From an uncultured Bdellovibrionales bacterium (lineage in GTDB: Bacteria; Patescibacteriota; Minisyncoccia; Moranbacterales; UBA1568): a stretch of 64,000 nucleotides of DNA. The notes beneath the pieces are model-generated. The model saw only the letters and a list, made by a program, of their open reading frames with translations. It did no database searches and was not told the origin of the DNA. The stretch covers positions 356,824-420,823 of the forward strand of contig CAZTBI010000001.1 in the NCBI GenBank assembly GCA_964612055.1, written 5' to 3'. The position numbers and the translations under genes are program-made. Of the stretch, positions 141 to 62,561 are shown piece after piece; within the stretch, counting starts at the first letter, position 1; each line of letters begins with the position of its first letter.

Positions 141-1964
141 CTATTTTTTCAACACAGCAAGAAAAGCACTCGACGGAATAGAAACTCTCCCCTGGCCCAT
201 TTCCTTGGCTTTTTTCTTCCCCTTTTTCTGCTTCTCCAAAAGCTTCTTCTTGCGTGAGAAGTCACCACCATACATGTAGCCGGTCACGTCCTTGCGGTAG
301 GCAGCAATCGTCTCCCGAGCAATCACCTTGCCACCGATAGCCGCCTGCAGAGCCACGGCAAAGTTCTGGCGCGGCAACACTTCTTTCAATTTTTCCACCA
401 CGCGCTTGCCCTCACTGTGAGCATCACGTTTCGGCACCATGCGAGCAAAGGCATCGACTGGTTCATTGGCCACCAAAATATCAAGCTTGATAACATCGCT
501 TTCTCGATAACCGATCAATTCATAGTTCATGGAAGCGTAGCCAGAAGAAGCGCTTTTCAAATCATCGTGGAAGTTCACGATCACATCCATAAGTGGCGCC
601 TCAAAAGAAAGCAGTACGCGCTCTTCGTCGATATATTCCGTATTCTTGTAATCAGCTCGGATAGACTGGCACAGCTGCATGACACCACCGAGGTATTCAC
701 TTGGCGCTACAATCGAAAGCGCCACATACGGTTCGTACATAGCTTCGATACTCGCCGGATCTGGCAGATCAACCGGCGAATACAGGGCAATATTTTTCTC
801 CTCACCTCGAATTTTCATTTCATATACCACCGATGGCGTCGTAATGGTCGGTACCAGACTAAATTCTCGCTCCAGACGCGCCTGAATAATTTCCAAATGA
901 AGCAGCCCTAGGAATCCACAACGAAAACCCCGACCGAGTGCCTGGTTACTTTCCGGCTCAAAAGTGAAAGCGGCGTCATTGAGTTTCAGTTTATCAAGGG
1001 CGTCACGCATAAGCGTGTAGTCGTCGCCATCCACCGGATACATACTGGCATACACAGCTGGTCTGATTTCTTTGTATCCCGGCAGCCGCTCTACCACGGT
1101 CTGGTCACGATCTTTCTTTTTCCAGGTCACGGTATCACCGACCCGGCAGTCAGCCACGGCCTTCAGCCCAGTAGCTACATACCCAATATCACCAGCACGC
1201 AAAACATCGGTCGCCACAAGATTCGGATGGAAAAGCCCAACCTCGACTGTCACGCCCTCTTTTTCCGTCCCGAGCATATGAAGCACATCGTCACGCTTCA
1301 CAGAACCATCAACGACTTTCACATACGCCACGACGCCCTTGTAGGTATTGTAGACGGAATCAAAAATAAGAGCCCGCAGCGGCGCCTCCTCATCACCCTT
1401 TGGTCCCGGCACTCGCTCAATCACACGCTCCAGTACCGCCTGCACGCCGAGACCGGTCTTCCCAGAAGCGAGGAGGATATCTTCTTCTTTGACACCCAGA
1501 ATATGCACGATTTCTTTCTTTGTTTTTTCCACCTGGGCATTTGGCAAATCAATCTTGTTGATTACTGGAATAATCTCTAATCCCTGTTCAATGGCCAAGT
1601 ACAGGTTCGCCAAAGTCTGAGCCTGCACACCTTTGGTGGCATCAACGAGCAAAATTGCCCCTTCGACAGCCGCCAAAGAGCGGGATACTTCGTAGTGAAA
1701 GTCGACATGTCCTGGAGTATCAATCAGATTGAGCATGTACTCCGTTCCTTGGTAGGCATAATGCATCTGGACTGGCTGAAGCTTGATAGTAATACCGCGT
1801 TCACGTTCCAGGTCCATTTGATCGAGCAACTGCTCCTTCATCTTGCGCATTTCTACCGTTTTAGTCAGCTCAAGCAGCCGGTCAGCCAGAGTCGACTTTC
1901 CGTGATCAATGTGCGCAATAATACAAAAATTGCGGATATTTTGTTGACGTATACTTTTGTCCAT
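141..1964 (-). CDS. lepA: Elongation factor 4 (LepA), translational GTPase
   Basis: 607 aa. G-domain motifs AHIDHGKST and DTPGHVDF, and a LepA-specific C-terminal domain. ATG start confirmed in the sequence. Confidence 0.95.
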   Translation of the reverse strand: MDKSIRQQNIRNFCIIAHIDHGKSTLADRLLELTKTVEMRKMKEQLLDQMDLERERGITIKLQPVQMHYAYQGTEYMLNLIDTPGHVDFHYEVSRSLAAVEGAILLVDATKGVQAQTLANLYLAIEQGLEIIPVINKIDLPNAQVEKTKKEIVHILGVKEEDILLASGKTGLGVQAVLERVIERVPGPKGDEEAPLRALIFDSVYNTYKGVVAYVKVVDGSVKRDDVLHMLGTEKEGVTVEVGLFHPNLVATDVLRAGDIGYVATGLKAVADCRVGDTVTWKKKDRDQTVVERLPGYKEIRPAVYASMYPVDGDDYTLMRDALDKLKLNDAAFTFEPESNQALGRGFRCGFLGLLHLEIIQARLEREFSLVPTITTPSVVYEMKIRGEEKNIALYSPVDLPDPASIEAMYEPYVALSIVAPSEYLGGVMQLCQSIRADYKNTEYIDEERVLLSFEAPLMDVIVNFHDDLKSASSGYASMNYELIGYRESDVIKLDILVANEPVDAFARMVPKRDAHSEGKRVVEKLKEVLPRQNFAVALQAAIGGKVIARETIAAYRKDVTGYMYGGDFSRKKKLLEKQKKGKKKAKEMGQGRVSIPSSAFLAVLKK

Positions 1965-53728: not shown

Positions 53729-53983
53729 TTATTTAACGAGTGAATTTTCTATAAGTTCCAGCTTCGATGAACGGGGAAGTTTCTTGATACGAGATTCTTC
53801 GATAGAAGCTTTGGAGCGATTGCGAAAGGCTTTGGAATAGACCAGTTTCACCGGCCGCCTGGCTCGCGTATACTTTGCACCGAGAGCCGACGCATTATGT
53901 TCCTCTACTCTTCGTTTCAAATCTACGGTAATACCAGTATACAGCGTCTTATCCGCACACCGGAGAATATAGAGGTGATACAT
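53729..53983 (-). CDS. GIY-YIG nuclease-superfamily small protein (YhbQ/UPF0213-like)
   Basis: MYHLYILRCADKTLYTGITVDLKRRVEEHN ... GIY-YIG motif. Confidence 0.75.
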   Translation of the reverse strand: MYHLYILRCADKTLYTGITVDLKRRVEEHNASALGAKYTRARRPVKLVYSKAFRNRSKASIEESRIKKLPRSSKLELIENSLVK

Positions 53984-54007: not shown

Positions 54008-57000
54008 TTATTCACCTAACTCATTCGCCAGAAGTTCAGCTTGCTTCAAAACATTTTCGGTCGCTACCAACTGTTCATCGGGCGGATATCCATAACGATT
54101 CAAAATACGCTTCACATCTCGACGCAAACGCGCCCGGACACTCTCCTTGAGCGTCCAATCAATCGTCGCATTCCCCTTTACACTTCGGAATACCTCAATC
54201 GCTATCACGGCCAACTGCTTATCACCCAGTACTTCACGAGCGTTTTCGTTATTAGCAAGCGCATCATAAAATGCCAACTCATCTTCAGCGAGATCCAGTT
54301 CTTCTCCACGTTTGTCTCCTTCCCGAATATCTTTGGCAAGCTTGATCAATTCCTCAATCACCTGCGTTGTTGTGAGTAAATTGTTCTGATACTTCTTGAT
54401 GGCATTTTCGAGCATCTCCGAAAGCTTCCGACTCTGAATGAAGTTTTTTCTCGTCCGTGTCTTGATCTCATCATTCAATAATTTCTTCAACAATTCCAAG
54501 GCAAGATTCTTGCGCTCCATATGGCGCACGTCCTCCAAGAACTCATCCGAAAGAATAGAGATGTCTGGCTTCTTGATCCCGGCCGCATCAAAGACATCGA
54601 CGATACCTTCTGATACCACGGCCGCATCTACGATTTGCCGGATAGCCGTTTCAATTTCCAAATCAGACTTACCCGTTCCGGCTGGCTCAAACTTGGTCAA
54701 TCGTGCCTTTACCGCTTGGAAAAACCCAATCTCATCCTTCAACTCCATCGCTTTCAGGTTTGGCACGGACAGAGCAAAGGCTTGCGAAAGTAACCCCACC
54801 TCACGGGTAAACCGATTCTTGCCATCATCGAGTCCGAGCACGTGTTCCTGTGCCTCAAGGATCACCGTCAATTTCTCCCGGGTATCAGCCGAGAAATATC
54901 GTTTGTACTCAAATCCGGTAAACATCTGCTCGACGACTTCGAATTTTTCCAATAGCTTAGCAACTACTTCCGACTGGTCCAGTGTCGGCGTACCTTTGCC
55001 ACCACTCGATGTATAGGTCGCCAGAGCCGTTTTCAAATCAGAGGCGATGCCGATATAGTCCACGATGAGCCCTCCGGACTTATCCTTGAATACGCGATTC
55101 ACTCGAGCGATCGCTTGCATCAGATTGTGTCCACGCATCGGCTTGTCGACATACATAGTGGAGAGGCACGGTGCGTCGAATCCCGTCAGCCACATATCCC
55201 GCACGATCACCAGTTTCAGCGGATCGCTCGCATCCTTGAACCGCTCACCGAGCGCTTTGCGATTCTCTTTGGTGGTATGGTGCATCTGCCAATTTTCTGG
55301 ATCCGAAGACGATGACGTCATCACTACCTTGATTGCACCTTTTTTCAAATCCTGATCATGCCACTCGGGACGGATTTTCATTATCGCCTCGTAGAGCTCT
55401 ACAGCGATGCGCCGACTCATACAGACGATCATCGCTTTCCCCTCCATTGCTTCTTGGCGTTTCTCGAAATGATCCACGATATCAGTCGCCACTATCCGCA
55501 AACGGTCACGGTGTCCGACGATTGCTTCGAGCTGCGCCCACTTCGCCTTGGCCTGCTCGGCTGCTGTACTCTCTTCTCCTTCGGTAATCGAAGCAACCTC
55601 GTCATCGAGCCGGGATTTTTCTTCATCCTTCAAATGCACCTTAGCCAAGCGTGATTCGTAATAAATCCGCACGGTCGAACCATCTTCGACTGCCTGAGCG
55701 ATATCGTAAACATCGACATATTTCCCAAAGACCGCAGGTGTCGAGGCATCCTCTTTTTCAATCGGTGTCCCGGTGAATCCGATGAACGACGCATTCGGCA
55801 AAGCGTCACGCAGATACTTGGCAAAGCCGTATTTAGTGAAGACTTCTCCGTCTTTCTCGGTCGTCTTGGCACCAAAGCCATATTGACTCCGATGAGCTTC
55901 ATCCGCCACGATGATGATATTTTTTCGCTCAGAAAGCATGTCAAAGTTCGCCGCACCATCCGCTGGGAAAAATTTTTGTATGGTTGTGAAAACGATACCT
56001 CCACCCGTTACCCGAAGCAAGTTCTTCAATTCCTCACGATTGCTCGCCTTCACCGGATCCTGTCGCAACAACTGCTTGCAACTCGCAAAGGTATCAAAAA
56101 GTTGTTCGTCCAGATCGTTGCGGTCAGTGATAACCACTACTGTCGGATTATCCAGTGCCAAGACCACTTTGCCGGTATAGAACACCATCGAAAGCGACTT
56201 GCCACTCCCCTGGGTATGCCAAACCACGCCAGCCTTGCGATCGCCCGCTTCACTCGATGCTTCCATGGTCGAAATAATCGCCTTGTTCACAGCGAAGTAC
56301 TGGTGATAAGCAGCAATCTTTTTCACGGTGACGACTGACACTATCCCTGTCTTCGGATCTTCTTTCTTCGACTTTTCAAAAACAATAAACTGCCGAATCA
56401 GATCAAGTAGTACTTCTCGTGTCATCATCCCATGCACGAGCGTCTCGATCTGAGGCACTGTCGCTCGGTCCTCTTTCACACCATCCCGAGACTTCCACGC
56501 GAGGAAGCGCGACATGTCCGATGATATCGTCCCGACCCGAGCATCCAGTCCATCCGATGCGACCAAAAGTGCATTGTAATAAAAAAGCGATGGAATGGCA
56601 TTTTTGTAATTCTGAAGCTGGGTATAGGCTTTGTGGACTGTGGCGTTTTCATCCACTGGGTTTTTGAGCTCGATCACCACCAGCGGTAGCCCATTAATGA
56701 GGAGCACTACGTCGGGACGCTTGGTCACATTATTCTCGATCACGGTGTACTGATTACGCACGAGGAATTCGTTTTTTGTGACATTTCCGAAGTCAACCAA
56801 ATGCACTTTCTCGCCTTTTACTCCATCCGTTCCCATCACTTCTACCTCGATCCCTTCGGTGAGCATGCGATGAAACGCCTCATTGTTGTCCATCAAGTTC
56901 TGACTCGGTAAATTGAGCACAAGGCGCAAAGCTTGTTCTTTGGCTTCTTCTGGGATACTCGGGTTGATCCGGTCAATCGCCTGCTTCAATCGTTCCCGTA

Positions 57001-57124
57001 ACACTACTCCACCAAGATCGGGTCTTTCTTTCTCTTGATCCTCAGGCGACAAATACTCGAACCCTTGGGATTCCAAAAGCTCAATCATGAATTCTTCAAT
57101 CGTAGATTCAAATATTTTGGTCAT
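54008..57124 (-). CDS. hsdR: Type I restriction enzyme R subunit (HsdR)
   Basis: 1038 aa. N-terminal PD-(D/E)xK region, SF2 helicase motifs (TQGSGKS, DEAH-like VADEAHRSQ, motif VI) and the HsdR C-terminal domain. Confidence 0.9.
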
Positions 57125-57597
57125 GACTTTCTACCCTTTGATTCTTGGATTATTATCTGCGCCAACATCCCAAACATTCTATATCCATAAAATAGGTTAA
57201 ACAAAAATACAGAAGTAAGGAGATAACTAGACTTACTGTCCATATAAACATTATTAACTCCACTCTGATTCAGTAGAAGGATAAGCACAATAATATATAG
57301 TATTGAAGCCAAAACAACAAGCATCCCTACCTTATACTTAAAGATAAGAGCGTGTAACAATGTTTGTGATTTATCTTCGCTATCAGTCAAGCTATAAAGA
57401 CTAGTAACATACTTAGACGTTGAAAAAATAGCAAAACTTGTTACGTAAAACCCAAAGGCTATTGAAAGAAAAGTTACAACATTCGTTAATAAATCAACTT
57501 TCAAAACAAAGCCTTGAAGGAAAAAATTTTGTAAGTAATATCCGCCGATACCAAATATAAACAACTCGACTATTAGTCTTTTATACTGCGGTTTCAT
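57121..57597 (-). CDS. Unknown 4-TM membrane protein embedded between hsdS and hsdR (candidate defence effector)
   Basis: 158 aa, very AT-rich. Start overlaps the upstream gene by 17 nt and the stop overlaps the hsdR start by 4 nt, so translationally coupled. Confidence 0.55.
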
Positions 57598-58408
57598 TTT
57601 GTTTTATTTTAGTGATTAGTGATTCAAAAAGATTGTTCTCATAGAGCTTCCCTGTTTTATCATCAGTAACTCCATCTACTGATATCTTATTCACCACTCC
57701 ATCAGTATTAAACACGGACGAAAAGTCATCTGCTGTTCTTCCGACTATTGTCAATTTTTCAAAAGTACTCTTTTTTCCTATTATAGACCGCATCTTATCT
57801 TTTACGCTACCGATAGTCATCCCTCTTTTATATCTCAAAATCAATGTTGCTTCATCTGCGCCAAAACCATATATATCCTCTGATAGTTTTGCAGAAAGTA
57901 ACTGCGAATCATACTGATTGAACAAATTAGGCACAACAGTTAAGGACACTTCAGAAACGCTTTTTATTTTATTGATGAATTCTTCTTTATCAAAGAGCGG
58001 TTTTATAACCACTTCAGCACCAGTCTTCTCTGCGAGCCAACCGATCAGGGTATTTACCCTTCTTTGGTCCGATATGTAGATTATTTGAGTATTTGCATCA
58101 ATAAGGGCGAATACCTGATCATTTGTTTCTATTTCTTCTGGTGACTTTGGATTATCATGCTCCTTCAGACTAGCGGAATCAACAACCATCGGAGAGTAAG
58201 GCCATTTTTCTCCTTCTTGAAAATATAACCCTATAAACCGACTCTCGAACTCTACTTTTTTAAAAATCCGTATAGATATGACTTCTTGGTCTATTTTAAA
58301 CGGCTCAGTATGACTCCCTGGTATTCTTCCTGAAAAATCAAAAACAAAGCGATTATCGTCAACAATCATCTGGTTTGCTGAAAATGACACTTGCTTTACT
58401 TTGCCCAT
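57581..58408 (-). CDS. Unknown soluble protein (275 aa) embedded between hsdS and hsdR (candidate defence sensor)
   Basis: AT-rich. No TM. No recognisable catalytic motif. 5-nt gap to the hsdS stop. Confidence 0.55.
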   Translation of the reverse strand: MGKVKQVSFSANQMIVDDNRFVFDFSGRIPGSHTEPFKIDQEVISIRIFKKVEFESRFIGLYFQEGEKWPYSPMVVDSASLKEHDNPKSPEEIETNDQVFALIDANTQIIYISDQRRVNTLIGWLAEKTGAEVVIKPLFDKEEFINKIKSVSEVSLTVVPNLFNQYDSQLLSAKLSEDIYGFGADEATLILRYKRGMTIGSVKDKMRSIIGKKSTFEKLTIVGRTADDFSSVFNTDGVVNKISVDGVTDDKTGKLYENNLFESLITKIKQNETAV

Positions 58409-58413
58409 AAAAG

Positions 58414-59613
58414 CTACTTACTTATCGTTACTTCTCCGCTCATCAACTTTGGCAAAAGAGTGTCTCTGAGGGTTAAGAGGGTTTGGATTTGAGAATCATT
58501 ATTCCAGATTTTGTATTGCAATGGCTTTATAACTTCGGCAAATTCATTCGCAATATTTGGCGTTGGAACAATATATTTTTTCTGCTCAAAATCCGGCCAA
58601 TGCCCCTTGTATTCGATAAATGATACTTGGCCGAGAGTCATATAATAAACAAAGAATGTACTATACTCGATGTTTCCCCGAAATGGAAGAACGTTTTGAA
58701 TCGCACAAAATGAATAATTCACAAACCACATATTACATGTATGGTTTGTAAAAAGAATCACTGGGTTTTCCGTGCTCGCTTCAAAATCCGCTGCGCGAGA
58801 TGTATAACCATACAAACCCGTTGAGCCCTGATCAAAGATCGGTGTTTTTCCTTTCGAATCTAGATCATCTTTATCACAACGGTAACTTACCGAATGCTTT
58901 TTGATTACATCTTTCACCGTCCCGACTTTCCACCCCTCTGGGATTTCGCCGAGTTCGGAGTCGATCATTTTTCCACCGGAGGACTTATAGGGTTTGCCTT
59001 CAGCGTTCGGAAAATTGAAATTCACAAACCATTCTTTGAAAATCGCCTGCGCGGTCGCTTCAAGTGTTTTATTCTCCTCTCGCAAAAGTTCAATCTTATC
59101 ATCCAAACTCGAAAGCACCCCCGCAATTTCCTTTTGCTCAGGAAGAGATGGAAGAAGAATTTTTGTTTTTAGCAATTCCGACTGTTTTATACCCGTGACA
59201 GTTGACCCTGATTCCCTACTCTTCAATTGATGCTGATAGTATTTGCTATCAATAAAGTAATTAAAGAAAAAAGAATCAAGAATATTCTTCTTTGTTCTTA
59301 TTCCAAAAATTCGCTGACTTAAAACTAACTTCTCCTCCGATTTCCAAATAATATGCTCTCCTAGAGGAGCCTCTGAGGTCAAAAAAATATCGCCGTACTC
59401 AACCTCTTCTTTCATCCACTTCCTATACAAATTCTCTGACAAAAGATTCATCTGTCCCTCATTAACCAATTGACCATTTTTGATTGACTTTGCGGAAATA
59501 GCCCTATATCCGACCACGGACCAGTCTCCGCCCATTTTTTTAGGCGTCATCCCTCTATGGTCGATTATAATATCAACTGCTTTTCCTAAAGTTGTTTCTT
59601 TCCATTCGTTCAT
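58414..59613 (-). CDS. hsdS: Type I restriction-modification specificity subunit (HsdS)
   Basis: 399 aa with two target-recognition domains separated by the conserved central coiled-coil (LPSLPEQKEIAGVLSSLDDKIELLREENKTLE) and the C-terminal conserved repeat (LLTLRDTLLPKLMSGEV). Confidence 0.85.
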   Translation of the reverse strand: MNEWKETTLGKAVDIIIDHRGMTPKKMGGDWSVVGYRAISAKSIKNGQLVNEGQMNLLSENLYRKWMKEEVEYGDIFLTSEAPLGEHIIWKSEEKLVLSQRIFGIRTKKNILDSFFFNYFIDSKYYQHQLKSRESGSTVTGIKQSELLKTKILLPSLPEQKEIAGVLSSLDDKIELLREENKTLEATAQAIFKEWFVNFNFPNAEGKPYKSSGGKMIDSELGEIPEGWKVGTVKDVIKKHSVSYRCDKDDLDSKGKTPIFDQGSTGLYGYTSRAADFEASTENPVILFTNHTCNMWFVNYSFCAIQNVLPFRGNIEYSTFFVYYMTLGQVSFIEYKGHWPDFEQKKYIVPTPNIANEFAEVIKPLQYKIWNNDSQIQTLLTLRDTLLPKLMSGEVTISK

Positions 59614-59615
59614 AC

Positions 59616-60605
59616 CTATTCCAATTCAAAATCAGTAATTTCATTTGCCTCATCTATTGTTGATGTTATATATGCATCCGTGCTATCAACAATAGTGCCG
59701 CCATCACTATCTTCCCTCTCCAGATCCAAACCAACATATGTTTCGACTAAAAATACCCCATCTATACCCAGACTGCTATCCCCTTCAATTTTTTCAAATT
59801 TAGTACATTTATTCAAAATTTCAACTCCGACGATATCAAATTCCTCACCATCTTTTTCCCATTTCTCAATATTGTACTTAATATAGTCCTTAATCTGATC
59901 ATCAAAATATGATGTTTGTATCAGAGAGAAAATTTCTTGATTTTCAATAATATCAGCATATGAACTCTCTATTTTTGCTTGTAAAAGAGATAGGTCTTTA
60001 ATTATTTCAAGACTCTTATTCTTTTTTTCAATAAACTCTCTTTCGCATCCGTCGAACCCAGAATCATCCGTTAGAAAAAATATTTCATCGTAATAAGTAG
60101 TATTAGAAAAGTTTTTCAAAAGAGTTTCCCATATAACCACATCTTTGAATCCAGCATCGGTTCCCTTTTTAAACGGCGCTCTTTTCTCTACGGACCTGTT
60201 AAGAATATTTCTAAACATTTCTGCGTGATCGCTTTTGTCACTACAAAGAATTTTTATATGATAATTTTTAGTAAAAAACTCTTTTTGCTTTTCGTTAAGA
60301 AATTTTTTAATATCTAAATCAAAAAATTCAACCTCCTTAACAACGCCTACTTCTTGTAAAGATTTCGCAACTGACTTAAATCTCGACACATCAGTTGCAT
60401 ACTGATCAGTCTTCTGTTTTAACAGTTCACGAATAACAATTTCTGGAACAGCTATATGCACGTAATCTTTAAGTCCCTTCTCTTTGATGAAAGAGTCTAC
60501 GAATTTATAGTCGCCTCCCAATACAAAATCTGCGTATCGCAAGTCACTATTATTTGAATCTCTAAGCTTATTTGTATCAAACACTATAAGTGTTTTATAA
60601 GACAT
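59616..60605 (-). CDS. Unknown AT-rich protein between hsdM and hsdS, possible PIN-like nuclease fold
   Basis: N-terminal LIVFDTNKL resembles PIN strand 1 (hhhDTN). Candidate acidic residues at IRELL and FLTDDSGF. 2-nt gap to hsdS and 16-nt gap to hsdM. Confidence 0.5.
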   Translation of the reverse strand: MSYKTLIVFDTNKLRDSNNSDLRYADFVLGGDYKFVDSFIKEKGLKDYVHIAVPEIVIRELLKQKTDQYATDVSRFKSVAKSLQEVGVVKEVEFFDLDIKKFLNEKQKEFFTKNYHIKILCSDKSDHAEMFRNILNRSVEKRAPFKKGTDAGFKDVVIWETLLKNFSNTTYYDEIFFLTDDSGFDGCEREFIEKKNKSLEIIKDLSLLQAKIESSYADIIENQEIFSLIQTSYFDDQIKDYIKYNIEKWEKDGEEFDIVGVEILNKCTKFEKIEGDSSLGIDGVFLVETYVGLDLEREDSDGGTIVDSTDAYITSTIDEANEITDFELE

Positions 60606-60621: not shown

Positions 60622-62169
60622 CTACGGTTTCAACCCGATCTTTGAAAGTTGCTTCTTTATTTCCTCGTTCAGCTCTTCTTCCTTTTCCATCTGTTGTTTC
60701 AATGTTGCTGTCAGATCAGCAATCTTTTTCTCAAACGGAATACCATCATTAACTTCATCGGGAATACCGACATAGCGCCCTGGGGTCAAGACGAAGTTGT
60801 GTTTGGTGATATCCTCGATTGTCGCAGATTTCGAGAATCCTTTTTTGTCTTCGTGCTTCCCCTCTTTGCTTCGCCATTCATGATAAGTGCTCGCGATCAT
60901 CGCCATATCCTCATCGGTGAATTCTTTGTGAGTCCGATCAGCCATATGCCCGACTTCGCTCGCATCGATGAAGAGGATTTCACCCGTACGTTTACGGTCA
61001 CCATTGCCGGTACGCTTGCGTGAGAGAAACCAGATACATGCCGGGATGCCGGTGTTGTAGAAGAGTTGCTTCGGCAAAGCGACGATACAATCTACCAAAT
61101 CATGTTCGATGAGTGACTGACGAATACTCCCTTCACCACTGGTTTGACTCGAGAGCGACCCGTTAGCCAAGACACACGCCATCACGCCTTTCGGTGAAAG
61201 ATGATAGATCATGTGCTGCAACCAGGCAAAGTTGGCATTGCCGGCTGGTGGCATCCCATATTGCCACCGCGGATCATTAGCTAGGAGTTGCCCTGACCAG
61301 TCGCTGTCATTGAAGGGTGGGTTGGCGAGGATATAGTCGGCCTTCAAATCTTTGTGTGCGTCATTCAAAAATGATCCTTCAGTGTTCCACTTCACCTGTG
61401 ATCCATCGATCCCCCGAATCGCCAAGTTCATCCGACAGAGACGATAGGTAGTCTGATTGCTTTCTTGTCCGTAAATAGAGATATCATCTACCTTTCCTTG
61501 GTGACTCTCCACGAATTTCTCACTCATAATAAACATCCCGCCCGATCCACAGGCTGGGTCATACACCCGGCCGCTATGGGGCTCGATCATTTCTACCATC
61601 AGCTTCACGATCGATTTCGGCGTGTAGAACTGACCACCTTTCTTGCCTTCGGCATTGGCGAATTCTCCAAGGAAGTATTCGTAGACTCGCCCAAGAAGAT
61701 CTTTACTCTTGGCTGCCTCGGTCCCAAGCGCGATATTCCCCACGAGATCGATCAGTCCACCGAGCGCAGTTTTGTCGAGATTCGGACGAGCATAGACTTT
61801 GGGCAGAATACCTTTCAAGGTCGGATTTTCTTTCTCGATCGCCTCCATCGCATCATCGAGATCCGTGCCGATACCGGGCTGCTTGGCTCGTGCATGGAGA
61901 TAATTCCAACGAGCTACTTGCGGAACAAAGAAAACATTTTCCGCCCGATATTCATCAGCATCTTCCGGATTGGCATCTTTGAAGTCTCCTTCTCCAGCTT
62001 TTATTTTTTCGTACAGCTCCTCGAAAGAATCTGAGATGTATTTGAGGAAAATAAGCCCAAGGACAATATGCTTGTACTCAGCCGCATCCATATTCTTGCG
62101 AAGCTTATCCGCCGCCCGAAAGAGGATCTTTTCAAAAGCCTCTGTTTTCTGGTTATCATTTTTCGCCAT
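60622..62169 (-). CDS. hsdM: Type I restriction-modification DNA methyltransferase subunit (HsdM), N6-adenine MTase
   Basis: HsdM N-domain (ILFRAADKLRKNMDAAEYKHIVLGLIFLKYISD). SAM motif I (DPACGSGGMF) and motif IV NPPF. The true start is the internal ATG (MAKNDNQ). The upstream 93 codons of the ORF-track frame are spurious read-through over the GFA gene. Confidence 0.9.
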   Translation of the reverse strand: MAKNDNQKTEAFEKILFRAADKLRKNMDAAEYKHIVLGLIFLKYISDSFEELYEKIKAGEGDFKDANPEDADEYRAENVFFVPQVARWNYLHARAKQPGIGTDLDDAMEAIEKENPTLKGILPKVYARPNLDKTALGGLIDLVGNIALGTEAAKSKDLLGRVYEYFLGEFANAEGKKGGQFYTPKSIVKLMVEMIEPHSGRVYDPACGSGGMFIMSEKFVESHQGKVDDISIYGQESNQTTYRLCRMNLAIRGIDGSQVKWNTEGSFLNDAHKDLKADYILANPPFNDSDWSGQLLANDPRWQYGMPPAGNANFAWLQHMIYHLSPKGVMACVLANGSLSSQTSGEGSIRQSLIEHDLVDCIVALPKQLFYNTGIPACIWFLSRKRTGNGDRKRTGEILFIDASEVGHMADRTHKEFTDEDMAMIASTYHEWRSKEGKHEDKKGFSKSATIEDITKHNFVLTPGRYVGIPDEVNDGIPFEKKIADLTATLKQQMEKEEELNEEIKKQLSKIGLKP

Positions 62170-62189
62170 ATCTGTCTTTCCAATCCTAA

Positions 62190-62540
62190 TTACATGCTCT
62201 TCCCATCGAACTTCCCTGATTGCAGGGTTGAGAGGTCGACGCCCTGCAGACAGCGGACGTTTACCATGACGGTGGCGTTGCCGGCTTGATCGGTGCCGCG
62301 GCCGAAAGACTGGACTCCGCAGACTTTGCAGAAAAGATGAGCGATTTTCTTGGTGTTGAAGCGATACTCTGTAAGCATGTCCTCCCCCGAAAGTAGCGTG
62401 AAGTTCGCTGCCGGGACAAAGGTCAAGATGAAGCCCTTTATCTCGCAATGCGAACAGTTACAGGTAAACGTTTTCGTGAGGTCCGCCTCGACCTCATACT
62501 TCACCACCCCACAATGACACCCACCAGTATATTTTTGCAT
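62190..62540 (-). CDS. GFA-family (glutathione-dependent formaldehyde-activating enzyme/CENP-V-like) Zn-binding protein
   Basis: GGCHCGVVKYEV ... CNCSHC ... Cys pattern typical of the GFA family. Start set to MQKYTGG. Confidence 0.7.
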   Translation of the reverse strand: MQKYTGGCHCGVVKYEVEADLTKTFTCNCSHCEIKGFILTFVPAANFTLLSGEDMLTEYRFNTKKIAHLFCKVCGVQSFGRGTDQAGNATVMVNVRCLQGVDLSTLQSGKFDGKSM

Positions 62541-62561
62541 AGTATTTCTTCCAACCACGAA

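Follow-up and report, generated by a model that had tools for sequence, protein, structure and literature searches.

Rex-type phage-exclusion systems combine a cytoplasmic protein with a small membrane protein encoded by the next gene. Lambda RexA, Sbash gp30, CarolAnn gp44 and Butters gp30 all carry or weakly match DUF4747; in each case a protein with four transmembrane helices (4-TM) follows, and the pair defends against heterotypic phages (PMC6426596, PMC6426606, PMC7542560). In the searchable literature, DUF4747 appears almost exclusively in papers on Rex-like systems (PMC6426596, PMC6426606, PMC7542560), and the systems have been linked to one another in print by HHpred matches that are themselves weak. 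A 2026 paper lists a "DUF4747/CarolAnn prophage system" among the immune operons controlled by CapK/CapS, which are often sandwiched 3' of restriction-modification (R-M) operons (PMC13373217). Here we analyze two adjacent open reading frames (ORFs), ORF275 and ORF158, that lie inside a Type I R-M operon on contig CAZTBI010000001.1 of an uncultured Bdellovibrionales bacterium. All positions refer to the window, the whole 64,000-nucleotide (nt) stretch of this contig that was analyzed. The two genes probably encode a two-component module for phage exclusion by abortive infection, Rex-like in kind and carried by the operon as cargo, and the pair is most likely a new, highly divergent member of the Rex-type systems.

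ORF275 (57581-58408, minus strand) encodes 275 amino acids (aa) with an isoelectric point (pI) of 5.2. It is modelled as a cytoplasmic protein of the RexA/RdgC fold and is the presumed sensor and DNA-binding component. ORF158 (57121-57597, minus strand) encodes a basic protein of 158 aa (pI 9.5), predicted to be a four-helix membrane protein and a RexB-analogous partner. This arrangement resembles lambda RexA/RexB (Pfam PF15969/PF15968; structure 8twq) in gene order, a cytoplasmic protein and then a small 4-TM protein, and in size (279 versus 275 aa and 144 versus 158 aa), whereas sequence similarity is undetectable for both proteins. The lambda rex genes lie 15 nt apart within the immunity region of a prophage, controlled by cI; in contrast, ORF275 and ORF158 overlap by 17 nt (57581-57597, minus strand), which indicates translational coupling, and the window pair lies in a chromosomal Type I R-M operon. 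Relatives of ORF275 do occur in prophages, as the lambda genes do.

The actinophage systems Sbash gp30/gp31, CarolAnn gp44/gp43 and Butters gp30/gp31 are similar in a further respect, as a cytoplasmic protein, DUF4747-associated in the actinophages, is followed by an overlapping 4-TM protein. The 26-nt overlap of CarolAnn gp44/gp43 mirrors the coupling seen here, and DUF4747/CarolAnn operons, like the window pair, are associated with R-M operons, being reported on their 3' side (PMC13373217). However, the actinophage sensors are 337-372 aa, about 100 aa longer than ORF275. They are also systems of Actinobacteria, whereas the ORF275 family is hosted by Firmicutes, Proteobacteria, Campylobacterota, Spirochaetes, Bacteroidota and Saccharibacteria. 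An initial annotation of the window had read the pair as a sensor with a membrane effector, to which the structural evidence also points, and had suggested that it may be undescribed. The latter suggestion is not supported, given the RexA/RdgC fold, the family members named DUF4747, the published Rex/Sbash/CarolAnn/Butters architecture and the operons reported in PMC13373217.

The fold of ORF275

An AlphaFold2 model of ORF275 built from five sequences was poor (predicted local distance difference test, pLDDT, 36) and was discarded. With a 100-sequence family alignment (A2), the model reached a pLDDT of 90.7 and a predicted template modelling score of 0.79. The initial annotation had proposed comparing such a model by Foldseek. 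Against the Protein Data Bank (PDB), this comparison placed lambda RexA (8twq_B) first, with E 7.5e-7, probability 1.0 and 265 aligned columns. RdgC of E. coli and P. aeruginosa (2owl/2owy) came second at E 1.5e-5 to 4e-4, and all other matches had E above 0.02. The model shows the two domains of the RexA/RdgC fold, a split globular domain and a dimerisation domain, and on this structural basis ORF275 is assigned to that fold. Lambda RexA and ORF275 share RdgC, IML3, CHL4 and Cas2 as secondary structural relatives, and Adams et al. (2024) give the same set for RexA itself (PMC11077077). In a Foldseek-type search of viral models, uncharacterised proteins of siphoviruses, 277-314 aa long, matched best (E about 1e-13), and RdgC-like proteins of phages ranked after them. 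At the sequence level, a profile search of PDB sequences returned only noise.

RdgC itself (2owl, 2owy) differs in context. It is a housekeeping gene that stands alone and lacks a membrane partner, whereas the ORF275 family is found in defence islands and prophages, and no family member has a Pfam RdgC match. Two relatives carry a database label. UniRef names A0A6L5WID4 of Campylobacter portucalensis (the L033 protein) and A0A7X9RXV7 of Flammeovirga aprica (P0133) "DUF4747 family protein", while family members of Streptococcus and Bartonella are named only "hypothetical protein".

The predicted membrane partner and the coupling of the pair

ORF158 is predicted to be a small, basic, four-helix membrane protein, with hydrophobic blocks at about residues 8-30, 36-60, 88-110 and 126-150. 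The initial annotation had presented it as a 4-TM protein. The four blocks bear this out and are all visible in the family-mean profile, but the topology is a prediction, and in the window protein two blocks are strong and two (TM1 and TM4) are moderate. Lysine and arginine are concentrated at the N-terminus, in the loop between TM2 and TM3, and at the C-terminus, which fits a four-helix topology with both termini inside (N-in/C-in), as RexB and Sbash gp31 are described to have (PMC6426596). Conservation in the family peaks in the predicted TM2 and in this central loop (residues 61-87; 57337-57417, minus strand), which is predicted to be cytoplasmic. Among the 14 invariant columns of the partner alignment (A3), six fall in the loop (S61, L67, D72, T79, L81 and L84) and five in TM2. 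Likewise, in Sbash gp31 the cytoplasmic loop at the centre is the best conserved part, with eight invariant residues, and it is functionally important, as R70A or D73A abolishes defence (PMC6426596). ORF158 therefore resembles RexB in length (about 140-180 aa), in its four predicted helices and in the position of its gene directly downstream of the sensor gene, and it resembles the CarolAnn-type partner in having a conserved central loop that is predicted to be cytoplasmic.

When 1.84 billion representatives, clustered at 50% identity, were searched exhaustively with a profile, ORF275 relatives were retrieved in 410 clusters at E<=1e-3 and in 297 at E<=1e-10. Nearly all full-length matches are 260-285 aa. 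Close relatives detected by a word-indexed search number five for ORF275 and three for ORF158, and only 5-8 relatives were found even with a 100-sequence profile. The best-conserved motif of the ORF275 family, as judged by alignments and column counts, is N86-P87-[K/R]-x4-[I/V]-E94 ... Q-x-F ... Y-x-S (58071-58153, minus strand), with E94 the sole invariant column among 100 family sequences. The initial annotation had recognised no motif in either protein, and this holds at the sequence level: there are no significant matches for ORF275 or ORF158 in Pfam, NCBIfam, PHROGs or PADLOC, so the PADLOC scan that it had proposed named no known system. Matches to Ubiquitin_2, SAVED_TM and TMEM70 were below the cut-offs and inconsistent from member to member, and were dismissed. 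Searches by tblastn with three ORF275-family members in PLSDB plasmids, and with one in GenBank phages, returned no match.

For wider sampling, GTDB species genomes were scanned with a degenerate DNA pattern derived from the motif (NP[KR]x4[IVL]E..Q.F..Y.S). Of 132 full-length members, 39 match the pattern, which occurs once in the window, with 0 occurrences expected by chance. It yielded 49 GTDB loci, 37 of which are true members by hmmsearch with the A2 profile. A partner matching the A3 profile lies directly downstream on the same strand in 32 of these 37 genomes; in the remaining five, one locus (L044) has the A3 match on the opposite strand, and four are cut at an end of the locus or have an unscored small ORF. 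More widely, an ORF158-type gene of about 140-180 aa lies on the same strand 3' of ORF275 homologues in almost every locus with visible downstream DNA, in close relatives and in relatives from roughly 30-45% to 24% identity. All close relatives have hsdS, in some cases one extra gene, then the 275 gene, the 158 gene and hsdR, and they retain a 14-17-nt overlap of the two genes in backgrounds of 29%-43% GC. The overlaps measured among relatives span 1-26 nt. ORF275 and ORF158 thus form an obligate, translationally coupled pair that is kept from 91% to about 22% identity.

The pair is not intact everywhere. In L044, from Bartonella melophagi, the partner-profile match lies at 310-804 (plus strand) and the ORF275 homologue at 799-1617 (minus strand). 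Further Bartonella entries in the same cluster are fragments of 98-120 aa, and the module may be rearranged or decaying in this genus. The cluster of Streptococcus vestibularis and S. thermophilus (the L039 protein) has 260 members, many of them truncations of 130-151 aa across hundreds of contigs. This suggests that the sensor gene is often inactivated in dairy and oral streptococci.

Both window genes are AT-richer than hsdM and hsdR, as the initial annotation had stated. ORF275 has a GC content of 0.361 and ORF158 one of 0.317, while hsdR reaches 0.489, hsdM 0.486 and the whole window 0.478; at third codon positions the values are 0.31 and 0.30, against 0.55 for hsdR and 0.54 for hsdM. Because of this composition the pair is regarded as exchangeable cargo, and its separate acquisition as a self-contained two-gene cassette is supported. 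Low GC content is also the only feature in favour of taking the ORFs for decayed fragments of hsdS or hsdR, an outcome the initial annotation had allowed for, or for chance ORFs of an AT-rich spacer. This explanation is refuted. The ratio of nonsynonymous to synonymous substitution rates (dN/dS) is 0.06-0.10 for the two ORFs compared with relatives of 91%, 71% and 59% identity (0.09-0.10 for ORF158 alone), 410 clusters hold homologues of the same length, the globular fold of ORF275 is confident, and neither ORF shows similarity to hsdS or hsdR in the Pfam, PADLOC and NCBIfam scans. Since dN/dS is low and full-length homologues number hundreds, ORF275 and ORF158 are genuine intact genes under purifying selection.

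The fold and topology also bear on which protein acts as the sensor. Under a Kiwa-type logic, ORF158 would sense phage attachment or membrane perturbation, and ORF275 would be a DNA-binding effector that blocks replication or recombination without killing the cell. Kiwa (4-TM KwaA and DUF4868 protein KwaB) also combines a small polytopic membrane protein with a DNA-binding cytoplasmic protein of about 300 aa. The modelled fold of ORF275 is that of the non-specific DNA binders RdgC, RexA and IML3-CHL4, lambda RexA acts on DNA without RexB (PMC11077077), and the cytoplasmic Butters gp30 is described as the chief antagonist, with gp31 modulating it. A DNA-level effector would suit a location beside DNA-targeting restriction enzymes as well. 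However, the gene order of Kiwa is the opposite (membrane protein, then soluble protein), while that of a sensor-like protein followed by a membrane protein is the rexAB order, and the conserved loop of ORF158 is predicted to be cytoplasmic, which fits action from inside. We consider this division of roles, the chief competitor of the Rex-like reading, unlikely. Identity with Kiwa itself is rejected, as neither protein resembles KwaA or KwaB in PADLOC or Pfam and Kiwa structures are absent among the PDB fold matches.

Genomic contexts and the Type I operon

The initial annotation had asked whether homologues recur between hsdS and hsdR or in other defence islands. They do both: the hsdS-hsdR junction is occupied in all close relatives, and distant relatives lie beside other restriction or defence genes. 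At least 19 of the 37 GTDB genomes have an R-M gene directly adjoining the pair, a count drawn from a motif-biased (about 30% of the family), Streptococcus-rich sample and given without a background rate. The adjoining gene is hsdS of a Type I system in 11 loci, an MmeI-like enzyme in three, a Type III Mod methylase in two, and a FokI endonuclease, HsdR and a 1268-aa adenine methyltransferase in one each. Hosts include many Streptococcus species, Oscillospiraceae, Ruminococcus, Campylobacter, Sulfuricurvum, Treponema and Saccharibacteria, together with Alpha- and Gammaproteobacteria, among them Rickettsiaceae and Bartonella.

Individual loci extend this picture. On metagenome contigs, the pair lies directly upstream of an MmeI-type IIG enzyme in L016 and L017, and in one case (L018) directly 3' of a Type ISP enzyme of 1618 aa, close to an integrase. 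In L010, a relative of 24% identity, hsdS and the pair are followed by an AAA-type ATPase. On other metagenome contigs the pair is found in a prophage region with a serine recombinase, an amidase and HNH (L012) or beside a NERD protein (L014), and in Campylobacter (L033) it is next to valS. Five IMG/VR viral contigs carry true ORF275-family members, with the partner visible in three. Among 73 further neighbours scanned with Pfam, the top families were ResIII, Methylase_S, N6_N4_Mtase, EcoEI_R_C, AAA_21/AAA_15 with DUF4276, and SLFN_AlbA_2, and some phage terminase and plasmid Rep genes were also present. Overall, the pair accompanies at least five R-M types (I, IIG, IIS, III and ISP) and also occurs in phages and prophages.

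Some observations on single loci can be added. In L010 (1680-2540), the ATPase starts with MLIEFSVENFRSIKD and by eye looks like the AAA_15/AAA_21 (OLD/AbiEii-like) type. In two alphaproteobacterial metagenome-assembled genomes (L064, 2925-8000; L030, 4836-7626), the pair directly follows a Type III Mod methylase. A 763-aa gene, possibly Res, comes after the pair in L064; if it is Res, the pair may sit inside a Type III operon there, as the window pair does in a Type I operon. Of 18 viral matches to the DNA pattern, 13 were false (L071, L074-L081, L083, L084, L086, L087; related phages) and are not family members by hidden Markov model (HMM). In all 12 of these contigs with an ORF called over the match, it falls inside a conserved 334-aa gene.

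This distribution bears on whether the pair serves the R-M system itself, as a membrane-tethered DNA-binding localiser or regulator, or, in a RexB-like manner, as a factor that modulates Clp-dependent restriction alleviation. Proteolysis by the ClpP family is inhibited by RexB, and HsdR serves as a substrate of ClpXP during restriction alleviation. The ATGA overlap couples ORF158 tightly to hsdR, and the pair is found between subunits, at the hsdS-hsdR junction here and after the Type III mod gene, with the large gene downstream, in L064. An accessory role is nevertheless disfavoured, because the same pair accompanies five mechanistically different and unrelated R-M types and is also found where R-M genes are absent (the L012 prophage, the NERD and valS loci, and viral contigs). 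In addition, most Type I systems work without the pair, and its AT-rich composition is that of exchangeable cargo. We regard such a role as improbable.

Mobility could also point to a selfish addiction or exclusion module, in which a toxin-like membrane protein and a regulator stabilise their island without any anti-phage role. The pair is mobile, AT-rich and present in prophages and islands, small membrane proteins are common as toxins, and there are many truncated copies in the S. thermophilus/S. vestibularis clusters. Against this, the homologous architecture is experimentally anti-phage in four systems (PMC6426596, PMC6426606, PMC7542560, and lambda), and purifying selection on both ORF275 and ORF158 is strong, which leaves this explanation very improbable.

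In the window, the ORF listing shows six closely packed genes on the minus strand between 54008 and 62130. The packed hsdM/hsdS/hsdR operon with two ORFs at the hsdS-hsdR junction, as first annotated, was confirmed by the ORFs and by very strong scores in Pfam, PADLOC and NCBIfam. The Type I methyltransferase gene hsdM (60622-62130) matches Pfam N6_Mtase (E 1.9e-113) and HsdM_N, and hsdS (58414-59613) encodes a specificity subunit with two target-recognition domains (Pfam Methylase_S; PADLOC Specificity_I, E 1e-87). The restriction subunit is encoded by hsdR (54008-57124). The spacings given by the initial annotation were likewise borne out by the sequence: 5 nt (CTTTT) separate the hsdS stop codon TAG from the ORF275 ATG, the two cargo genes overlap by 17 nt, and the ORF158 stop shares 4 nt (ATGA) with the hsdR start. 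The longest hsdM ORF, 608 aa from TTG 62448 (60622-62448), would overlap an upstream 122-aa gene (62190-62558). The likely start is instead ATG 62130, because the Pfam HsdM_N match opens at residue 3 of that product. Promoter and terminator scans turned up no convincing internal signal, with counts near those expected from shuffling. A stand-alone GIY-YIG protein of 84 aa (53729-53983, minus strand) is encoded 24 nt downstream of the hsdR stop and is followed by a DUF1294 membrane protein.

The initial annotation was right to recognise the ORF275/ORF158 pair but overlooked a third cargo gene. Between hsdM and hsdS lies a 329-aa ORF (59616-60605, minus strand) with an N-terminal PIN_12 domain (PF16289, E 1.6e-17), a C-terminal half without assignment and a weak PADLOC match to NsnC. 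This could be a further defence or toxin gene embedded in the operon, and it is also present on an identical Logan contig (L008). The gene is AT-rich too (GC 0.321), and the operon therefore holds two separate cargo insertions. The Type I operon that carries the 59%-identical pair (L002) encodes a 233-aa protein before hsdS (212-913) and a 234-aa protein after it (2170-2874), the latter containing RNYRNHLIHG, which resembles the HEPN R-x4-H motif. As this cargo differs from that of the window, such Type I operons are suggested to be hotspots of cargo exchange.

Cargo in this position has precedents. PrrC and RloC, anticodon nucleases with an ABC-type ATPase domain and a nuclease domain at the C-terminus, with which the initial annotation had compared the pair, are likewise co-transcribed cargo at the hsdS-hsdR side of Type I operons and follow the same logic of a second line behind restriction. 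The comparison holds for position but not for protein family, as the proteins are unrelated, the presumed effector here is a membrane protein rather than a nuclease, and neither ORF275 nor ORF158 has a significant ATPase, nuclease, GmrSD or other family match in Pfam, NCBIfam or PADLOC. TgvAB of Vibrio cholerae VPI-2 has been proven as a two-gene system, and its genes lie within a Type I cluster (PMC11411939); it resembles the window pair in position, and its proteins are unrelated.

Proposed mechanism and significance

Beyond the pairing, fold, predicted topology, conservation and context described above, a mechanism can be proposed by analogy with lambda RexAB, Sbash gp30/31 and CarolAnn gp44/43, from which the trigger, the interaction and the channel activity are all drawn. 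ORF275 would be a cytoplasmic, probably dimeric, non-specific DNA-binding sensor, whose trigger would be either a DNA-protein intermediate of the phage or a phage protein. Once activated, it would engage the cytoplasmic loop of ORF158, which would open as a cation channel; membrane potential and ATP would then collapse and phage development would abort. Co-transcribed with hsdMSR, the pair would back up restriction as a second line, acting on phages that get past it.

While we favour this Rex-like reading, several observations weigh against it. The Pfam PF15969 and PADLOC RexA models match none of 110 ORF275-family members (ORF275 and 109 relatives), although they score lambda RexA at 1e-97 and 9e-110, respectively. 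The corresponding RexB models (Pfam PF15968 and PADLOC) match none of 11 partner-family members (ORF158 and 10 others), with lambda RexB at 8.5e-92 and 8.6e-61. Alignment of the family profiles by hhalign gave probabilities of 0.2% for A2 against the single lambda RexA sequence, 0.3% for A3 against the single lambda RexB sequence, and 0.1% and 0.2% against the single CarolAnn gp44 and gp43 sequences. In our local Pfam copy, even the two members that UniRef names DUF4747 show no DUF4747 match, so membership of that family rests on the label of the source. As a sequence-level link is absent, homology to Rex rests on fold, architecture, this label and context, while ORF158 is predicted to be "RexB-like" from its size, topology, position and conserved loop. 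Even in lambda, the ion-channel step has the status of a model, and the makeup of the GTDB sample tempers the R-M association.

That association nevertheless raises the possibility, which is speculative and on balance rather unlikely, that the pair is wired to restriction. ORF275 would read the DNA state of ongoing, failed or anti-restriction-blocked restriction and then fire the membrane effector. The states read may include a stalled translocating enzyme, DNA ends or recombination intermediates; in a related option, the RexB-like protein may tune Clp-dependent restriction alleviation. If this were true, the pair would be an R-M-type-independent "guard of restriction", analogous to PrrC but occurring with Types I, IIG, IIS, III and ISP.

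What is most interesting about the pair is how consistently it is embedded in R-M operons. Its preferred home inside or beside R-M operons of at least five types provides tractable, natural operons of R-M plus abortive infection, several of them in cultured Streptococcus, Campylobacter and Flavobacteriia-related strains. Present Pfam and PADLOC models of RexA and RexB miss the ORF275/ORF158 clade entirely, and alignments A2 and A3 could seed HMMs for defence-annotation tools. With at least 410 clusters at 50% identity in many phyla, the Rex architecture reaches well beyond lambda and a few actinophages. It thereby becomes testable what RexA-type sensors sense, and whether first- and second-line defences are mechanistically coupled.

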